Below, piece after piece: positions 5,903 to 26,324 of a stretch of 40,028 nt of DNA (position 1 is its first letter; each line of letters opens with the position of its first letter). A model generated the notes under the pieces. That model saw nothing but the letters and a program-made list of their open reading frames with translations, was not told the DNA's origin and searched no databases. This stretch comes from Patescibacteria group bacterium (lineage in GTDB: Bacteria > Patescibacteriota > Microgenomatia > Daviesbacterales > UBA10151), in assembly GCA_018816815.1 (NCBI GenBank), contig JAHIVD010000019.1, forward strand, positions 1 to 40,028, given 5' to 3'. A program made the position numbers and the translations under genes.

Positions 5903-6459
5903 CCTCGCAGCTTGCTGCGGGGGGGGTAATGGACGGATAGGGTAAAATGATTCTGTGACAAAAAGTTTTCATATACTCAAGCATCACAACAAAAATCTAA
6001 TGCTCTAGCATTTGGTTTGTCCGGCTAAATACCGAAGGAAAGTATTTTCAGAACAAGTTAAGAATACCCTGAAACAGATTTGTCTTGAGATTTCAGGAAG
6101 ATATGAAGTTAAGTATGTTGAAATTGGAACAGACTAAGATCATGTACATTTTCTGATTCAGTCTATACCAACGATGAGGCCAAAAACTATTATTCAGATA
6201 ACAAAAAACATTACAGCCAGGGAGATATTTAAGATCCATCCTGAGGTAAAACAAATGCTTTGGGGTGGACAATTCTGGACTAATGGATATTACATCAATA
6301 CGGTTGGACAATCAGACAATGAAGAAGCAATACGGAACTATGTTGAAAACCAGGGAAAGGAATACAAACAAATCTACCGCGGTCAACTTGAAATGTTTGA
6401 GGGTTTACCTTAAACTTAAGGTTAATGTGTTAACTACCTCGCAGCAAGCTGCGAGGTAG
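5903..6459 (+). mobile_element. IS200/IS605-type (RAYT-like) element remnant bounded by inverted palindromic hairpins
   Basis: Left hairpin at 5903-5922 (CCTCGCAGC TT GCTGCGGGG). Right hairpin at 6434-6459 (CTACCTCGCAGC AA GCTGCGAGGTAG, a perfect 12-bp stem). The two are reverse complements of each other and flank a Y1-transposase-like frame. Confidence 0.7.
6000..6413 (+). pseudogene. tnpA: IS200-family Y1 (HUH) transposase tnpA, full length (137 codons) but with two in-frame stops
   Basis: One frame reads ML*HLVCPAKYRRKVF...EIGTD*DHVHFLIQSIP...LWGGQFWTNGYYINTVG, which contains the IS200 hallmarks (KYRR, HUH-type DHVHFL, FW..GYY..TVG). TAG at 6006-6008 replaces the conserved Tyr. TAA is at 6135-6137. 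Confidence 0.8.
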
Positions 6460-7751: not shown

Positions 7752-8519
7752 TTATGTAAACATAAGCGTTTTTATAAATGTTTTTACCGGTCTGATAAAA
7801 TACACTCCAAATACAATCGTTACATAACAAGTAGTAACTGCAAGATATAATATTTTTGACGTTTGAGTATCTATAATCGGCAATAATAAAACAACCGCAA
7901 GAGCTGATAATTGCAGTAAAATCAATTTATTCCCTGAATAAAAGCGCAAAATCGGTCTTGCACTCCACCCTCCATCTTCCATCTCAAATCTTCTTTTTGT
8001 GCAGGCAATCCCAAAAGCAAGAAGGAAAATTGCAAATAATAATAGATAAGGCGCACTGCCTTCAACCAATAAAGCTCCCATAAAAAATCTTAAGGGATGA
8101 GTGGCGGCATTAGTAATAAGTTCCAAATATGGAATTTTTTTAGCAACGAGAGTATAAAACAAATTTAAGACTAAAAAAATAGAATACATCTGCACAATCG
8201 GGGCGCTAAAAAATAACATCCCACTCAGCAACCCAAATGATATTAAAATTGCGGCAAAAATCAACGCAGAGCTTATTCTTATTTTTCCCGCCGGCAACGG
8301 TCTTGTTTTCTTCAGGGGACTTTTTTTATCTGATTCAACGTCAATAATATCATTTAAAGTATAAATCCCTCCGTATAATAAAACATTAAATGATAAATAA
8401 AGAAACAATAATGTTAAAAAAAGCGACGGAGGTATTGCCGGTGCAAAAAGCAAGGCGCCGAGAATCACCATTATAAAAGTAATATGAAACCTGGGCTTGA
8501 TAAGTTTTAGATAATCCAT
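7752..8519 (-). CDS. UbiA-superfamily prenyltransferase, similar to decaprenyl-phosphate phosphoribosyltransferase (DPPR synthase)
   Basis: NDIIDVESDKKSPLKKTRPLPAG fits NDxxDxxxD followed by RP..G. The protein is polytopic. Confidence 0.75.
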   Translation of the reverse strand: MDYLKLIKPRFHITFIMVILGALLFAPAIPPSLFLTLLFLYLSFNVLLYGGIYTLNDIIDVESDKKSPLKKTRPLPAGKIRISSALIFAAILISFGLLSGMLFFSAPIVQMYSIFLVLNLFYTLVAKKIPYLELITNAATHPLRFFMGALLVEGSAPYLLLFAIFLLAFGIACTKRRFEMEDGGWSARPILRFYSGNKLILLQLSALAVVLLLPIIDTQTSKILYLAVTTCYVTIVFGVYFIRPVKTFIKTLMFT

Positions 8520-10336: not shown

Positions 10337-13300
10337 CTAAACGCTCTTTTTCTTCCCGACGATCTTCTCAAACTCATCCCCTTCCAGGGTTTCTTTTTCT
10401 AAAAGTGCTTTAGCAACAGCGTCCAGCTTGACTCTGTGTTTTCTTAAGATATCCTGAGCCGCCTTAAAACAACTATCTGTGATTTTTCTGACTTCGCAGT
10501 CAACTGCATTGTGCAGTTTTGGCGAAAGATCTACCCCTTCTTTCATTCCCCTCCAGATCCCAAACACTGGTCTGGGATTAACATTAATTGGACCTAAACT
10601 GGACATACCATACTCTGTCACCATGTGTCTGGCTATGTTTGTTGCTATTTCAATATCAGATGCTGCACCTGTTGAAATGTCTTTGAATGTCAGCTCCTCT
10701 GCTGCTTGTCCGCCCAAAGCAGCTGTAATCTGTTCTAATAGCCTGGACTTGCTTTCATTAGACCGGTCCTGTGTTGGAGGAAAAAGGGTGTGTCCGCCGG
10801 ATAAACCCCTGGAAATAATCGAAATCCGGTGAAGCGGATCAACTTTTTTAAGAAAATGTCCGACAATTGCATGACCTGCCTCATGATAGGCTGCCAGGTT
10901 TCTATCTTGCTCTGACTGCATCCTTTTCCGCTGTGGTCCTAATTTTTCCTTTGTAGCAGCCTCTTCCAAATCGTGATTATCAATAGCAGTTTTATCCTCT
11001 CTTGCTGCCAAAATTGCTGCTTCATTTAGCATGTTTGCCAAATCAGCACCGGAAAACCCAACAGTTCGTCTGGCTAACTTTCCCGGATCAACATTTTTGG
11101 TAAAAGGCTTACCCTTCATATGCAGTTCAATAATAGCTTTCCGCTCCTGCAGGTCAGGCATACTTACAACAACACGTCTATCAAACCTGCCTGGCCTTAT
11201 AAGTGCTGCATCCAAGAGATCAGGGCGGTTGGTAGCTGCGAGAATTATGACCCGTTCATTAGGAGTAAACCCATCCATTTCTACCAATATCTGGTTTAAA
11301 GTTTGCTCTCTTTCGTCGTGGCCTCCGGAAAATCCCATACCGCGCTGGCGGCCGATTGATTCAATTTCGTCAATAAAAATAATAGACGGAGAATTTTTCT
11401 TAGCTTGTGCAAACATATCACGAACCCTACTATTATGAAGCAGGACTGGTTTTTCTCCTCCAAAAAAAGCCTCATTTTCTACTCCACATAAATCATAAAC
11501 AAAACCATGATACTTTTTCTTAGTAACCTTTTTAACAATTGCTCTTTTAAATTGATTAGGATATTTTGCCTGAGGCAAAAATGGATTAGAAGTTTTACCG
11601 ATAATCAGTGTCCAAAATTCACCATCCGGCAATGGTCTATCCAAAATAATCCTTCCGCCTTTGATCCTTTCATGTTTAATACCTACTTTAATACCATGCA
11701 TTGAACAAAGCCATGCCAATTCTTTGATAAGTTGATGGCTGACTGAAGACATACAGAGTTTACCTGATTTGGTAATATAACCATCACCCCTGGAATAACC
11801 TTCCAGGAAAGCCAGAAAGTACTTTTTGGGTAACAGCCATAAAATCTCCGGTATATGCTTATTATGAGAACCATTACCGCAGAATCTAGCAAAAAACCTG
11901 CCTAAATGGTGAGAATAATAGTTAATTTTTACGCTGTGATCTTTTCTTTCTAAAACTACAGGTTTCACACCAAAAACATCCTCCATTAAATCAATACAAT
12001 CCCCGTAAACTGCTGGTTCGTGTGAACCAAAGGTGAATTCTAAACTACCAGTACCCCTACCTTCAGCAGTGTAAAACCCGAACAATTTCATCAGTTTGCA
12101 GGTTACTGATACTTGATCCGGCAGATTAAGTTTAACTAGCTTCTTTGAAAGGACTTGTGGAAAATGCACGCCTTTTTGCCAATTTAGGACTGTAGTTTGA
12201 CAAACCCCTGTTTCTGAAGCTAACCGGTAAGAGGACGATTTATCTGGATTTTGTAATACAAACTGATGCAAATACTGAATGCTTTCATCGTCTTCCCAGA
12301 AATCTAGAGTAATTTTAGAAGTTTCTTCAAATAAATGAGTTTTTATTCTATGAATGGTTTTTTTAACTACATCATCCCAGTGTTTTACATTTAACGGTAA
12401 CTCTACTAATAAATCTCCTTTTTTAAGTTCGCTTGCTTTTTTAGGCATAATCCCACCATGAGTTCTGACAAAAACAGAATGATCACCTGTTGTTTGTAGT
12501 TTACCCCCTAAATATTCAATATGATAAATTTCCGGAACTTTATGTCTGTAAACTGCTTCTACATCTTTCCAGGCGCTTGATTTAAACACTAATTGCTTAC
12601 CTTTGGTGCCCCGGAAACCATTTTGTTCTTTATCAAAACCTAAAGTTTGAATTCCCTCTGTTTTTTTAACTACACTGTGTTCATTTCCTGTGTAGAACCG
12701 ATCCACAAAATCTTTTATAGGAATTAATCCTATACCATCTTTGTCTTTAATTAAAATAGGTGTATCTCCTGTTACAGAAGCACCTACGCCTACTAACATT
12801 TCCATAAATTCAGATCCTGCTATAGAGTAAAAGGGTACGCCAGCCTCCCCTGCCACGGCTCGTGAAATTAAAGTTTTTCCGGTTCCAGCAGGGCCTACCA
12901 ATAACACCCCTTTGGGAATTCTGGCACCTAAGGCTTTAAATTTTTCCGGAGTTTTTAGAAATTCCACTATCTCAGACAGTTCTTTTTTGGCCTCCTCAGC
13001 TCCTGCCACATCTGTAAATTTGATCTGAGGAGCATCTTTGGAAAAAAGTTTGGCTTTACTTTGGGCAAAAGAAAAAACACCCTGTCCTGCATCACGGGCA
13101 TTCTTAAATAAAAAAACCATTAAACCTACCAGAATCAATATTGGCAAAACCGCAGATAAAATCCCGATCCAGGCTTGCTGAACAGATAAGTCCTTTATTT
13201 CAATAGTAACGGATTTTGGATCAACACCACTTGACTCGAAAATCTTATATATTGACTCACCCTCCTCCTTATGAGAAGTAAGCTTCTTGTCTGAATCTTT

Positions 13301-13552
13301 TACTTCTGCTGTTACCTTATCCCCTTCTATAGAGATTTTTGTCAATTTGTTGTCTTTAACATCAGAAACAATCTGAGAAATTGGCACTTCACTGCTATCA
13401 TCAGTTTTAGGCCCGCCGGAAACCTGATAAAAGAAAATAAGTGCAGCCAAAGCAATTAAGGTATAAACAGCTAAGCCTTTAAAAACTGCTAAAAGCTTTT
13501 TCTTATTTAAGAATTTTTTATTAAAACCGACTCTCTTTCTGCTGTTTGCCAT
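10337..13552 (-). CDS. ftsH: ATP-dependent zinc metalloprotease FtsH, interrupted by an intein
   Basis: TM helices, Walker A (GPAGTGKT), Walker B (IIFIDEIE), second region of homology (PGRFDR) and the HEAGH zinc site are all present. The ORF is 1071 aa; 622 aa remain after removing the insert. Confidence 0.95.
11432..12778 (-). mobile_element. Intein (449 codons) with a LAGLIDADG homing-endonuclease domain
   Basis: It starts with Ser259 (SVTGDTPIL) and has TGDH as a block B candidate. LAGLIDADG-like motifs are [11 protein letters not shown] and [12 protein letters not shown]. It ends VLLHN (Asn707) before Ser708. Joining the exteins restores GVGA|SRVRD. Confidence 0.88.
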
Positions 13553-23096: not shown

Positions 23097-23214
23097 ATTT
23101 ATGTTTCTGTCCTTCGATCTTTCCTATTCCGCACACTAGCACAAGACAAACTATAGTGAGGACCCATTTACAGTACTATTTTATGAATCCCGCATCAAGT
23201 GCAGATAGCGCTTG

Positions 23215-23288
23215 TAGCAGGGGTGGGGATCGAACCCACGACCTCTTCGTTATGATTGAAGCGCTCTAACCAACTGAGCTACCCTGCC
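23215..23288 (-). tRNA. tRNA with anticodon CAU (elongator Met or Ile2; not distinguishable here), no encoded CCA
   Basis: Hand-folded cloverleaf: GGCAGGG/CCCUGCU acceptor (G1-U72), GCUC/GAGC D stem, loop AUCAUAA, GUGGG/CCCAC T stem with UUCGAUC loop. Positions 31-39 form an A-C mismatch. Confidence 0.85.
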
Positions 23289-23369: not shown

Positions 23370-23645
23370 TTACTTTTTCCTATAAACTTCATTGTGAGTA
23401 CCCATCTTATAAAAATAGAGTTCGTCATCAGTTTCTGTATAGAGCATTCTAAAGTTTCTATTGATAGATATACTCCAGGTATTTTCAACTTTCCCAGTTA
23501 TTCTATGAAGTCTCAAGGATTTGATTTCAGGATTTTGTTGCAATAGATTTAATTGTTTAAGGATTTGTTTGTAGAACTTACTATCTCTTTTCTTAATCTC
23601 ATTTAACTGTTTAAGAATATCCGGGCTAAATTTTAAAGGCTTCAC
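23370..23645 (-). CDS. RelE/ParE-superfamily toxin
   Basis: 91 aa. The pattern LRLHRITGKVENTWSISINRNFRMLYTE...LYFYKMGTH matches RelE/ParE-like toxins. It overlaps the upstream antitoxin gene by 4 nt. Confidence 0.65.
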   Translation of the reverse strand: MKPLKFSPDILKQLNEIKKRDSKFYKQILKQLNLLQQNPEIKSLRLHRITGKVENTWSISINRNFRMLYTETDDELYFYKMGTHNEVYRKK

Positions 23646-23905
23646 AAATTATTAAGATACTTATCCAACTCAGCGGTACTATTGAATGTAACTGCTTGAT
23701 CTTTATTCTTTAAAGCTTTTTTATATGCTTTTATTGTTCTAACAGATGCTTCAAAAGTAGGATATTCCATATCTGCCACGTCTTTGAGTATTAAGTGTTT
23801 GATATATCCTGCCAAAGGCATACCAAATTTGCTGGCTTTACTTTCCAGAAAATCTTTTAGAACCAAGGGTAAATTTAGTTTGATTTGGGCTTGTTGAGTA
23901 ATCAT
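23642..23905 (-). CDS. Cognate antitoxin (RHH/Phd-like, type uncertain)
   Basis: 87 aa, directly upstream of and overlapping the toxin gene. The segment LPLVLKDFLESKASKFGMPLAGYIKHLILKD looks like a DNA-binding N-terminus. Confidence 0.55.
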   Translation of the reverse strand: MITQQAQIKLNLPLVLKDFLESKASKFGMPLAGYIKHLILKDVADMEYPTFEASVRTIKAYKKALKNKDQAVTFNSTAELDKYLNNL

Positions 23906-24216
23906 GAACCTAGCATATCACCAATTTCAGGACTTTTCAAGGACTAAAGTAAGTAACCCTCTCTTGCGTAATGATTGAGCAAAAAACTTGGATGAAAGTT
24001 GAGGATAGTTGTATTGCGGGATTTGTACGATGATGGTTATAACATTACAGTTCTTATGGTTAAATTTAAACCAAATATACTTAGGGGGACATTTAACAAG
24101 CAAAATACAACTTCTTTACAAACAAACCTGCACGACACAGCTTTATGTATGTATAGTTTTTTCCAATGTCTAGAAAAAAGAAAAATCCCGCATAAAGCAG
24201 GATAATTTTCTTTTTG

Positions 24217-24476
24217 TTGCGGGGGTGGGAATTGAACCCACTACCTCAAGATTATGCACCTTTCCACATTACTGTAGGGGTAGGACTATATCATCATCCT
24301 TTGACAAACAAAGGGTGCCCAGCGTGTAGTCTCTACGGGGTCCTGATTTAATTAAGACTTCCCTCGGTATTGTCCTTAAAAGAAGGATTTCACCGATATA
24401 GCTAGGTTCTCTTCTAATAATTACTCATTAGAGGGCCCAATTTGAGCCTCGTGTGCAACCGTTACACTTCCCCGCA
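24217..24476 (-). tRNA. tRNA(CAU) gene interrupted by a group I intron; exon 1 is 24445-24476 and exon 2 is 24217-24256
   Basis: The joined exons give a 72-nt cloverleaf: UGCGGGG/CCCCGCA acceptor, GUGU/GCAC D stem, CGAGG/UCUUG anticodon stem, loop CUCAUAA, GUGGG/CCCAC T stem with UUCAAUU loop, discriminator A. Confidence 0.8.
24257..24444 (-). ncRNA. Group I intron (188 nt) inserted between U33 and C34 of the anticodon loop
   Basis: The 5' exon ends in U, which can pair with an internal guide (GAGGCU with GG(C)CCUC, including a U-G wobble). The intron ends in G. The core GUAGAGACUACACGCUGGGCACCC closely resembles the P7/P3/P8 core of bacterial tRNA group I introns as I recall it. Helices UCGGU/ACCGA, UCCUU/AAGGA, GUCUU/AGGAC and CCUUUG/CAAAGG can form. 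Confidence 0.75.
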
Positions 24477-24482
24477 AGAAGC

Positions 24483-24511
24483 ATTGTAGCTTTCTTTCTG
24501 ATATCTGTCAA
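24483..24511 (-). promoter_or_regulatory. Sigma70-like promoter: TTGACA, 17-nt spacer, TACAAT, ending 6 nt before the tRNA 5' end
   Basis: -35 at 24506-24511 and -10 at 24483-24488 on the minus strand. Confidence 0.5.
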
Positions 24512-26239: not shown

Positions 26240-26251
26240 AAATCAATTATG

Positions 26252-26324
26252 TAGGCTCGGCTGGACTTGAACCAGCAACCTATTCTGTATAAGAGAAGCG
26301 CTCTGCCAATTGAGCTACGAGCCT
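26252..26324 (-). tRNA. tRNA-Ile with anticodon UAU
   Basis: Hand-folded cloverleaf: AGGCUCG/CGAGCCU acceptor, U8 A9, GCUC/GAGC D stem, anticodon loop CUUAUAC, GCUGG/CCAGC T stem with UUCAAGU loop, 5-nt variable loop. Positions 27-43 form a C-U mismatch. Confidence 0.8.

Follow-up and report, generated by a model that had tools for sequence, protein, structure and literature searches.

Group I introns within bacterial tRNA genes have been surveyed by Williams (bioRxiv 10.1101/2020.01.27.920355), who counted 5292 split genes of 21 types, among them the four classical ones (Leu.3Ug, Arg.5Ug, fMet.2Ug and Ile2.5Ug, the latter being that of Azoarcus), and a mean of 0.49 split tRNA genes per genome in unnamed metagenomic phyla. 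Here we will focus on one such gene, found in a Patescibacteria group bacterium (Microgenomatia, Daviesbacterales, UBA10151; assembly GCA_018816815.1) on the minus strand, at positions 24476-24217 of a stretch of 40,028 nt (contig JAHIVD010000019.1, positions 1 to 40,028) that we will call the window. In this gene, a group I intron of 188 nt splits a tRNA with the anticodon CAU after U33. As site 2 in the nomenclature of Williams is the one after U33, this arrangement corresponds to fMet.2Ug, a classical type that has been known since 1994. The intron class, the host type, the insertion site and the occurrence at the level of the phylum have all been described previously. Our search of the literature found nothing specific on group I introns in Patescibacteria, nor on formylation in the candidate phyla radiation (CPR). 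We will argue that the minus strand from 24476 to 24217 is very probably a single transcription unit for a precursor tRNA(CAU) that carries a group I ribozyme in its anticodon loop, and that this tRNA is most likely an initiator.

Several described systems can be set beside this locus. The cyanobacterial tRNA-fMet intron (fMet.2Ug; Synechocystis PCC 6803 and the seed Tpc1.fMet.2Ug) has the same host class and the same U33|C34 site, and it shares with the window intron the U(-1).G pair, the omega-G and a P1 made of the exon ...GCU and the intron CA paired with UGGGC. The introns of cyanobacteria exceed that of the window in length, with 244 nt for the seed and 655 nt in Synechocystis, where the intron contains the open reading frame (ORF) of the homing endonuclease I-Ssp6803I (PMC1995217), whereas the window intron has no ORF. 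They also differ by the large size of their P1 loop, by the extension of their P9 region and by the core GGGACAGUCC in place of GAUAUAGUCC, their hosts are canonical initiators, and their global identity to the window intron is about 63%. The seed Gba28.Ile2.2Ug (193 nt) is inserted at the same site, with the same P1 (GGCUCA/UGGGCC) and the same short P9 with a GUAA loop, and it shares with the window the strings UAUAUCGGUrAAAUCC, CAAUACCGAGGrAAG, CCGUAGAGACUAyACGC and AUGAUAUAGUCC; its overall identity to the window intron is 66-68%. The host of this seed was typed as Ile2 by tRNAscan-SE, whereas that of the window points to the initiator lineage.

The intron of the Azoarcus sp. BH72 tRNA-Ile(CAU) (Ile2.5Ug) is, like that of the window, minimal, devoid of peripheral domains and located in the anticodon loop of a CAU-tRNA, and its J6/7-P7-P3' core (GUAGAGACUAnACG...) is similar. 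It is, however, inserted after U36 (site 5) of a tRNA-Ile2, it is G+C-rich and 205 nt long, and it is 54-60% identical to the window intron; its self-splicing is proven, while that of the window intron is predicted. The L2 and L9 loops of Azoarcus are GNRA tetraloops, as they are in the window. Finally, the introns of CPR 23S rRNA and of other CPR tRNAs have the same core, but their hosts, their sites and their host-matched P1 and internal guide sequence differ. The global identities to the published seed introns, which range from 54 to 68%, separate the subtypes poorly.

The precursor gene and its intron

Read on the minus strand, the gene is made of a 5' exon of 32 nt (24476-24445, UGCGGGGAAGUGUAACGGUUGCACACGAGGCU), an insert of 188 nt (24444-24257) and a 3' exon of 40 nt (24256-24217, CAUAAUCUUGAGGUAGUGGGUUCAAUUCCCACCCCCGCAA). 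Its elements, in the direction of transcription and all on the minus strand, are the following.

24483..24511, minus strand: sigma-70-like promoter TTGACA-17 nt-TACAAT, a consensus match only, with a putative function
24445..24476, minus strand: 5' exon, tRNA positions 1-33 (acceptor 5' strand UGCGGGG, A8 A9, short D-arm, anticodon stem CGAGG, C32 U33)
24257..24444, minus strand: group I intron, C1 to omega-G188 (Rfam RF00028; own covariance model R1; minimum free energy (MFE) fold with z = -4.0)
24434..24448, minus strand: P1, G30 G31 C32 U33 and intron C1 A2 paired with U6 G7 G8 G9 C10 C11, loop AAU
24411..24433, minus strand: P2 hairpin, 9 bp with one bulged A, L2 being the GNRA tetraloop GUAA (compensatory changes, fold)
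24401..24406, minus strand: P3 5' strand CCUAGC (covariation C-G to U-A, A-U to G-C)
24364..24396, minus strand: P4 UCGGUG/UACCGA, J4/5 AAA, P5 hairpin UCCUU/AAGGA, J5/4 CAA (P4 99% paired in 118 sequences)
24337..24363, minus strand: P6 GGG/CCC and P6a hairpin (covariation, fold)
24327..24333, minus strand: P7 5' strand G112-(bulged A113)-GACUA (98.3% paired across 118 sequences, almost invariant)
24318..24323, minus strand: P3 3' strand GCUGGG, which forms the P3/P7 pseudoknot (covariation)
24298..24314, minus strand: P8 hairpin CCUUUG/CAAAGG, loop UUUGU (the weakest helix, 71% paired in the family, with a variable register)
24283..24288, minus strand: P7 3' strand UAGUCC, inside the conserved GAUAUAGUCC (pairing with the P7 5' strand)
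24264..24277, minus strand: P9 hairpin, 5 bp, L9 being the GNRA tetraloop GUAA (91% paired, many double changes)
24257, minus strand: omega-G, the last nucleotide of the intron (G in 14/14 same-site homologues)
24217..24256, minus strand: 3' exon, tRNA positions 34-73 (CAU, A37 A38, UCUUG, variable loop, T-arm, CCCCGCA, A73)
24175..24203, minus strand: intrinsic-terminator-like hairpin AUCCUGC-UUUAU-GCGGGAU followed by a U-run, 13 nt past A73

The group I assignment lies far beyond chance by its Rfam score. Indeed, the RF00028 model (Intron_gpI) matches the minus strand at 24454-24262 with 90.1 bits (E 6e-22) over the full model, positions 1-253, the gathering score being 50, so that the group I covariance model invoked by the initial annotation of this DNA agrees with its reading of the insert. 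In the window sequence, each of the 57 drawn pairs is a standard one, and the unconstrained MFE fold of the 260-nt precursor, whose z-score is -4.0 against dinucleotide shuffles, recovers the acceptor stem, the T-arm, P1, P2, P3, P4, P5, P6/6a, P8 and P9. Joining the exons in silico gives a 72-nt RNA that ARAGORN calls as a 72/73-nt tRNA(CAU), with the anticodon loop CUCAUAA on the stem CGAGG/UCUUG (two G.U pairs), exactly as had been proposed for splicing after U33 and after the terminal G of the insert. The unspliced gene was missed by ARAGORN, both in a default run on the whole window, where two other tRNAs alone were called (the tRNA-Met(CAU) at 23214-23288 and the tRNA-Ile(UAU) at 26251-26324), and with the intron option; the intron-aware search that the initial annotation had had in mind found nothing. 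This option was replaced by an exhaustive enumeration of the U(-1)/G(omega) joins around the core, each of them scored by ARAGORN, and a single tRNA solution emerged in the window, with the anticodon CAU, site 2 of the loop and an intron of 188 nt, the exons being those initially delimited. No CCA is encoded at the 3' end of the tRNA.

The segments that had been picked out as group I hallmarks are all present and fall in the expected places: AACCUAGC is the 5' strand of P3, ACCGAGGGAAGUC covers the 3' strand of P4 and P6, and GUAGAGACUACACGCUGGG runs through J6/7, P7, J7/3 and the 3' strand of P3, while the insert does end in G. The P1 helix needed a correction. The wobble at the 5' splice site stands, as the U33.G8 pair, but the pairing with a bulged C through GG(C)CCUC does not, since GGCU+CA/UGGGCC is kept in 14/14 homologues and found by MFE folding, without any bulge in P1; the extended P1 was rejected because its extra pairs use C12-C14, which are part of P2. 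P7 is presumably the helix that binds guanosine. The intron ends with AAAGGU-G188, and the GGU ahead of the omega-G could possibly pair with A164 C165 C166 as a P9.0. The helices are grouped as P1-P2, P3-P8-P7-P9 and P4-P5-P6/6a, a minimal layout similar to that of Azoarcus. With 42% G+C, the intron has neither peripheral domains nor an ORF, for which its 188 nt leave no space; a homing endonuclease inside it was rejected, the neighbouring ORFs being a DivIC-like protein, an 87-aa protein of unknown type and RelE. The architecture (no P5abc, no P7.1/7.2, GNRA loops in L2 and L9) fits the IC3-type bacterial tRNA introns, which should be taken as a resemblance only. A small GUAG/CUAC hairpin that RNAalifold drew within J6/7-P7 was rejected as an artefact, because RNAalifold allows no pseudoknot.

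If the established chemistry of group I introns applies here, the reaction would run as follows. The guide UGGGCC would compete with the anticodon stem for G30-U33 and draw these nucleotides into P1, so that U33 would be placed in the U.G wobble. The first attack, after U33, would come from an exogenous guanosine bound to the G-C pair of P7 that adjoins the bulged A. The CA at the 5' end of the intron, paired with G7/U6, would give way to the C34 A35 with which the 3' exon begins, so that a P10 of 2 bp would form; the identity of these two CA dinucleotides is read straight from the sequence. The omega-G188 would move into the G site, U33 would attack after G188, and the ligation of the exons would release the 72-nt tRNA with the loop CUCAUAA, to which CCA would be added later. 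The GNRA tetraloops of L2 and L9 presumably hold the domains together, as those of Azoarcus do.

The promoter candidate, with 11/12 consensus matches, is among the best in the scanned 3.4-kb region. Only 6 nt separate the end of its -10 hexamer from tRNA position 1, which may leave little or no leader for RNase P. The primary transcript may begin at the mature 5' end or 1-2 bases from it (24483-24476, minus strand).

A sporadic intron family and its empty sites

We scanned species-representative genomes for the pattern CCGTAGAGACTA-N20-50-GATATAGTCC, which gave at least 120 loci (the L numbers used below are our handles for loci and contigs). The loci listed belong mostly to CPR/Patescibacteria, with some in Bacillales, Acidobacteriota, Bacteroidota and gammaproteobacterial bins. 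Among them, 13 have the same site and the same tRNA lineage as the window, including Levy-, Davies-, Gottesman- and Roizmanbacteria; their introns are 187-208 nt long, and together with the window they make 14 same-site split copies (the window, L002, L024, L028, L041, L049, L050, L059, L076, L079, L092, L101, L106 and L109). On these 14 sequences, RNAalifold found P1 to P6a and P9, with compensatory changes in 23/46 pairs. The U.G pair of the splice site is present in all 14, and in 66/93 scorable members of the family; the intron starts with CA in 13/14 homologues.

A covariance model of our own, R1, was built from the canonical nested helices of the window intron and its homologues. It has exactly one match in the window, with 187.5 bits, and it also matches introns of other CPR hosts at 30-116 bits (Asn.4, Asp.4, Tyr.4, Arg.3 and 23S rRNA). 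Members of the family indeed split tRNA-Asn, -Asp, -Tyr, -Thr and -Arg genes in CPR genomes, as well as one site of the 23S rRNA. The family alignment brought together 118 copies, from the window and the first 99 of the at least 120 loci. In this alignment, 87.2% of the cells are paired, against 38-52% when the partners are slid by 1-3 columns; double-sided changes are found in 48/48 modelled pairs, and the covariation score reaches 0.57, while the slid controls stay at 0.05-0.09; the observed values are reached by 0/500 shuffles. Two points nonetheless count against taking this test at face value, and make it weaker than its figures suggest: the covariance model itself shaped the alignment, and the sequence of P7 was fixed in part by the search pattern. 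P7, about 98% paired but nearly invariant, is uninformative on covariation. Covariation in related genomes, from which the initial annotation expected support, does back the fold in both the 14 and the 118 sequences.

The small size of the intron had also been put forward as a distinctive trait. It is true that 188 nt are fewer than the 205 nt of Azoarcus, but this is not exceptional, as the family has members that are shorter still: the intron of L002, in the same host, has 187 nt, that of L053 (Tyr) 185 nt and that of L068 (Asn) 180 nt. The window intron is compact, yet no size record. Among the 23S rRNA insertions, located at ...GCGTGAGAC|AGGTTGGTCTCCTATCT... (GAGAC|AGGUUGG) in L020, L021, L032, L051, L055, L062 and L095, some copies are seemingly only about 165-170 nt long. 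Several CPR contigs hold two or three members of the family within 8 kb. Four of the split tRNAs of the Microgenomates initiator type (L002, L028, L041 and L076) lie on contigs labelled "uncultured Gammaproteobacteria", which are third-party annotation records of metagenome-assembled genomes; these bin labels look doubtful, because the tRNA and the intron group with the Levy- and Gottesmanbacteria copies.

The junction can be read in genes in which it is not interrupted. Metagenome contigs were searched for the predicted junction together with a D-stem anchor, GCACNNNAGGCTCATAATCT, which gave at least 120 contigs. According to ARAGORN, 105-112 of the contigs listed carry an uninterrupted tRNA of the same lineage, that is, at least 105 intronless orthologues, and these are contiguous across the predicted junction (...GGCU-CAUAAUCU...). 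The exon boundaries are thus fixed without experiment. Some of the intronless copies are near-twins of the window exons (66/72 identical), with the same U1 and the same unusual A8. Synteny links the window to the Daviesbacteria contig L050 (84% identity for a 780-aa protein, 75% for a XerC-like protein and 67% for the DivIC-like one), in which the site is filled by the intron as it is in the window. The same neighbourhood is found in L155 and L125 (76-82% identity for XerC and the 780-aa protein) with an intronless allele, so that close relatives differ by the presence or absence of the intron. The exact junction and the phylogenetic distribution are in this way directly observed, as are the sequence, the fold and its covariation, and the intron, sporadic in its distribution, belongs as an optional element to a wider CPR family.

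In these two contigs, the orientation of the intronless tRNA with respect to the genes of the DivIC-like and 780-aa proteins is the reverse of that in the window and L050 (L125 at about 6350-6440, plus strand; L155 at about 7800-7890, minus strand). The flip is a small local inversion beside the gene of the XerC-like recombinase.

Identity of the host tRNA

The host is, with good probability, the initiator tRNA-Met of a Microgenomates (Daviesbacteria-like) CPR lineage, in a derived and non-canonical form. Its acceptor stem, UGCGGGG/CCCCGCA-A, is identical to that of E. coli metZ, CGCGGGG/CCCCGCA-A, at positions 2-7 and at A73, with U1 for C1, as the initial annotation had seen, and among the published marks of an initiator, G2-C71, C3-G70 and the discriminator A73 are present. 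Once spliced, the tRNA is 72% identical to the E. coli fMet (metZ), 58% to the elongator Met and 56% to Ile2 (ileX); these values come from a comparison with the annotated metZ, ileX and metT, which replaced a blastn search against E. coli genomes that gave one weak match. At 1:72, initiators have the C1xA72 mismatch or, in rare cases, a weak U1-A72 or A1-U72 pair. The window has U1-A72; among its orthologues, 8/11 split copies and 39 of the 112 intronless ones listed have a C x A mismatch, and most of the others have U-A (67 of the intronless ones). The U1-A72 weak pair is a variant present in 1.5% of known initiators and was judged compatible with formylation (PMC1635315). The 2:71 pair covaries among the orthologues (G-C, A-U, C-G). 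In the anticodon stem, A29-U41/G30-C40/G31.U39 agrees with R29G30G31/Y39C40Y41, the conserved initiator rule (PMC1635315), and this pattern of A-U, G-C and G.U is a natural initiator variant of mycoplasmas and alpha-proteobacteria (PMC5389676). The initial annotation had worried that the three G-C pairs of this stem were not conserved; the strict form is indeed absent, but this is no real obstacle given this natural variant. The same intron family is also found at U33|C34 of unmistakable initiators in other CPR groups (L015, L094 and L005): the exons of L015 are 88% identical to the E. coli tRNA-fMet, with A1xA72 and A11:U24, and the tRNA of L094 is an orthologue of the intronless tRNA of L052.

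The other genes for tRNAs with a CAU or UAU anticodon are also informative, as the window holds a trio of tRNA-Met(CAU), split tRNA(CAU) and tRNA-Ile(UAU) within 3.1 kb. The two neighbours of the split gene are the following.

23214..23288, minus strand: elongator-type tRNA-Met(CAU), uninterrupted (ARAGORN, Rfam; closest to E. coli metT, 73%)
26251..26324, minus strand: tRNA-Ile(UAU), which would read AUA (ARAGORN, Rfam; 1.8 kb from the split gene)

A census over 703 kb of lineage contigs listed (120 contigs, L121-L240) gave 112 initiator-like tRNAs(CAU) and 78 of one elongator-like class, often adjacent to each other, along with 21 tRNA-Ile(UAU); no third CAU class and no Ile2-type tRNA(CAU) was found in these 703 kb. 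A tRNA-Ile(UAU) beside initiator-like and elongator tRNA(CAU) genes was also observed in L028, L049, L050 and L109. A tRNA-Ile(UAU) stands in for Ile2 in bacteria that lack tilS, such as Mycoplasma mobile (PMC3575796). As the tRNA-Ile(UAU) would read AUA, a tRNA-Ile2(CAU) with lysidine would be unnecessary, and the census suggests that this lineage decodes AUA without lysidine and TilS, in the same way as M. mobile. Together with the 1:72 pair of the orthologues and the identity to metZ, the CAU classes favor the initiator identity, which had initially been raised as a possibility.

Several features nevertheless weigh against this assignment. The 11:24 pair is U11:A24 in the window and in 14/14 split copies, with G12:C23 present, and not the A11:U24 that is conserved at about 100% in bacterial initiators and acts as a formylation determinant (PMC1635315); by that criterion, the window tRNA is a non-canonical member of the initiator family. 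Moreover, its 1:72 pair is a Watson-Crick one, its anticodon stem has a single canonical G-C pair out of three, its D-loop is very small, and the nearest published intron, that of the seed Gba28, has a host typed as Ile2 by tRNAscan-SE. The census also covers 703 kb of contigs, and a canonical initiator may be encoded elsewhere in the genome. The tRNA has another peculiarity, an A8 in place of the near-universal U8 (window position 24469), which implies that there is no U8:A14 pair. The same A8 is seen in L050, L125, L155, L179 and L206, and overall in 7/112 intronless alleles listed and in L050; being common to a Daviesbacteria-like subclade, it is a trait of the lineage and not a lesion.

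The typing of Gba28 leads to a different identity, that of a tRNA-Ile2(CAU), in which C34 would be converted to lysidine by TilS after splicing and which would read AUA like the Azoarcus host. That seed has the same P1 and core strings (Williams 2020), in Azoarcus an Ile2 gene is already known to host a group I intron, and both U11:A24 and the lack of the three G-C pairs are elongator-like. The expected features of an Ile2 (G3/A3 with C70/U70, C4-G69, C5-G68 and an Ile2-like profile) are however not those of the window tRNA, since C3-G70 discriminates against Ile2 and the G4-C69 and G5-C68 present here are the opposite of the C4-G69/C5-G68 frequent in Ile2 (PMC1635315). The lower identity to ileX than to metZ and the C1xA72 mismatch of many orthologues also speak against it, and the tRNA-Ile(UAU) that lies so close, and that recurs in related contigs, would make an Ile2 redundant, while the lineage would be left without a visible initiator. 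We regard this identity as highly improbable. It is also quite unlikely that the host is an elongator, or a tRNA-Met with a dual function in initiation and elongation, in which the paired U1-A72 would let EF-Tu bind. Such a function is in line with the Watson-Crick pair found in the window and in the 67 intronless orthologues mentioned above, and with the elongator type of the 11:24 pair; reportedly, in work by Seong and RajBhandary in PNAS in 1987, a C1-to-U1 change lets the E. coli tRNA-fMet elongate in vitro. But a separate and conventional elongator-type tRNA-Met(CAU) is found nearby in the window, and also on 78 of the related contigs listed, the acceptor positions 2-7 with A73 and the R29G30G31/Y39C40Y41 stem are initiator signatures, and U1-A72 is a known minor variant of initiators that is compatible with formylation (PMC1635315).

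A last alternative concerns the intron rather than its host, namely that it folds as a group I intron but is not autocatalytic alone, because it would need a protein cofactor or chaperone, or would splice poorly. P5, P8 and P9 have just 5-6 bp and are A/U-rich, in an intron of low G+C content, and no helix has less support across the family than P8. It also weighs against our proposal of a ribozyme that the self-splicing of the window intron is deduced from conservation. On the other hand, the core elements, both GNRA tetraloops, the U.G pair and the omega-G are intact and conserved, and similar bacterial tRNA introns self-splice (Azoarcus, PMC13168695). The host tRNA is moreover probably essential and has one copy in the 40-kb window, which makes selection for efficient splicing likely. 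An intron unable to splice by itself seems doubtful to us, and we retain a predicted self-splicing intron in a probable initiator tRNA.

Genomic surroundings and meaning for the lineage

The low G+C and the tRNA cluster could have evoked a phage or a plastid, but this origin was rejected, since the window encodes PolA, LysRS, TrpRS, FtsH, TrxB and PurT and has synteny with a Daviesbacteria contig. The FtsH ORF (10337-13552, minus strand) is 1071 aa long, for a usual length of about 600-650 aa, and the FtsH model matches two stretches of it that are about 370-450 aa apart. In this gap, the intein-like matches are those of an intein-containing Tes model, and an intein N-terminal model falls just below its cutoff; the ORF probably contains an intein. 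Between the two tRNA(CAU) genes, a gene for a toxin of the RelE/YafQ family (23370-23645) overlaps the 87-aa ORF (23642-23905), both within 23370-23905 on the minus strand, and they probably form an inserted toxin-antitoxin pair.

The locus is in the first place a further documented case of the classical group I intron of the fMet site, here in a Daviesbacteria-like CPR bacterium, and its closely related filled and empty sites illustrate a recent gain or loss. The family to which it belongs is made of naturally minimal, A/U-rich introns of 180-190 nt with GNRA L2 and L9 loops, which could complement the Azoarcus model; if they do self-splice, the 188-nt intron and its relatives of 180-187 nt would be natural ribozymes below the size of that of Azoarcus. 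Default tRNA finders do not see the gene, as ARAGORN shows by missing it, and a genome of this kind would seem to lack its probable initiator tRNA. If the exons of Gba28 resemble those found here, tRNAscan-SE may systematically mistype Microgenomates initiators as Ile2.

The main lead that remains is not the intron but the non-canonical features of the host tRNA, namely U11:A24, the frequent U1-A72, the A-U/G-C/G.U anticodon stem, the A8 of the subclade and the absence of Ile2. Two determinants of formylation, in the acceptor and D-stems, are missing or weakened, which raises the question of a relaxed or lost formylation. A tblastn search with E. coli Def and Fmt on 1.63 Mb of fetched DNA gave no matches, a sampling too thin to bear on this question. 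One may tentatively propose, as a rather unlikely but consequential scenario, that the initiator of the Microgenomates type has lost A11:U24 in all cases and the 1x72 mismatch in most, and that of the three G-C pairs of its anticodon stem the middle one alone is left, in a lineage without tRNA-Ile2; formylation and the discrimination between initiator and elongator would then be relaxed, lost or rewired. These features of the host suggest that formylation or initiator discrimination may be altered in Microgenomates.

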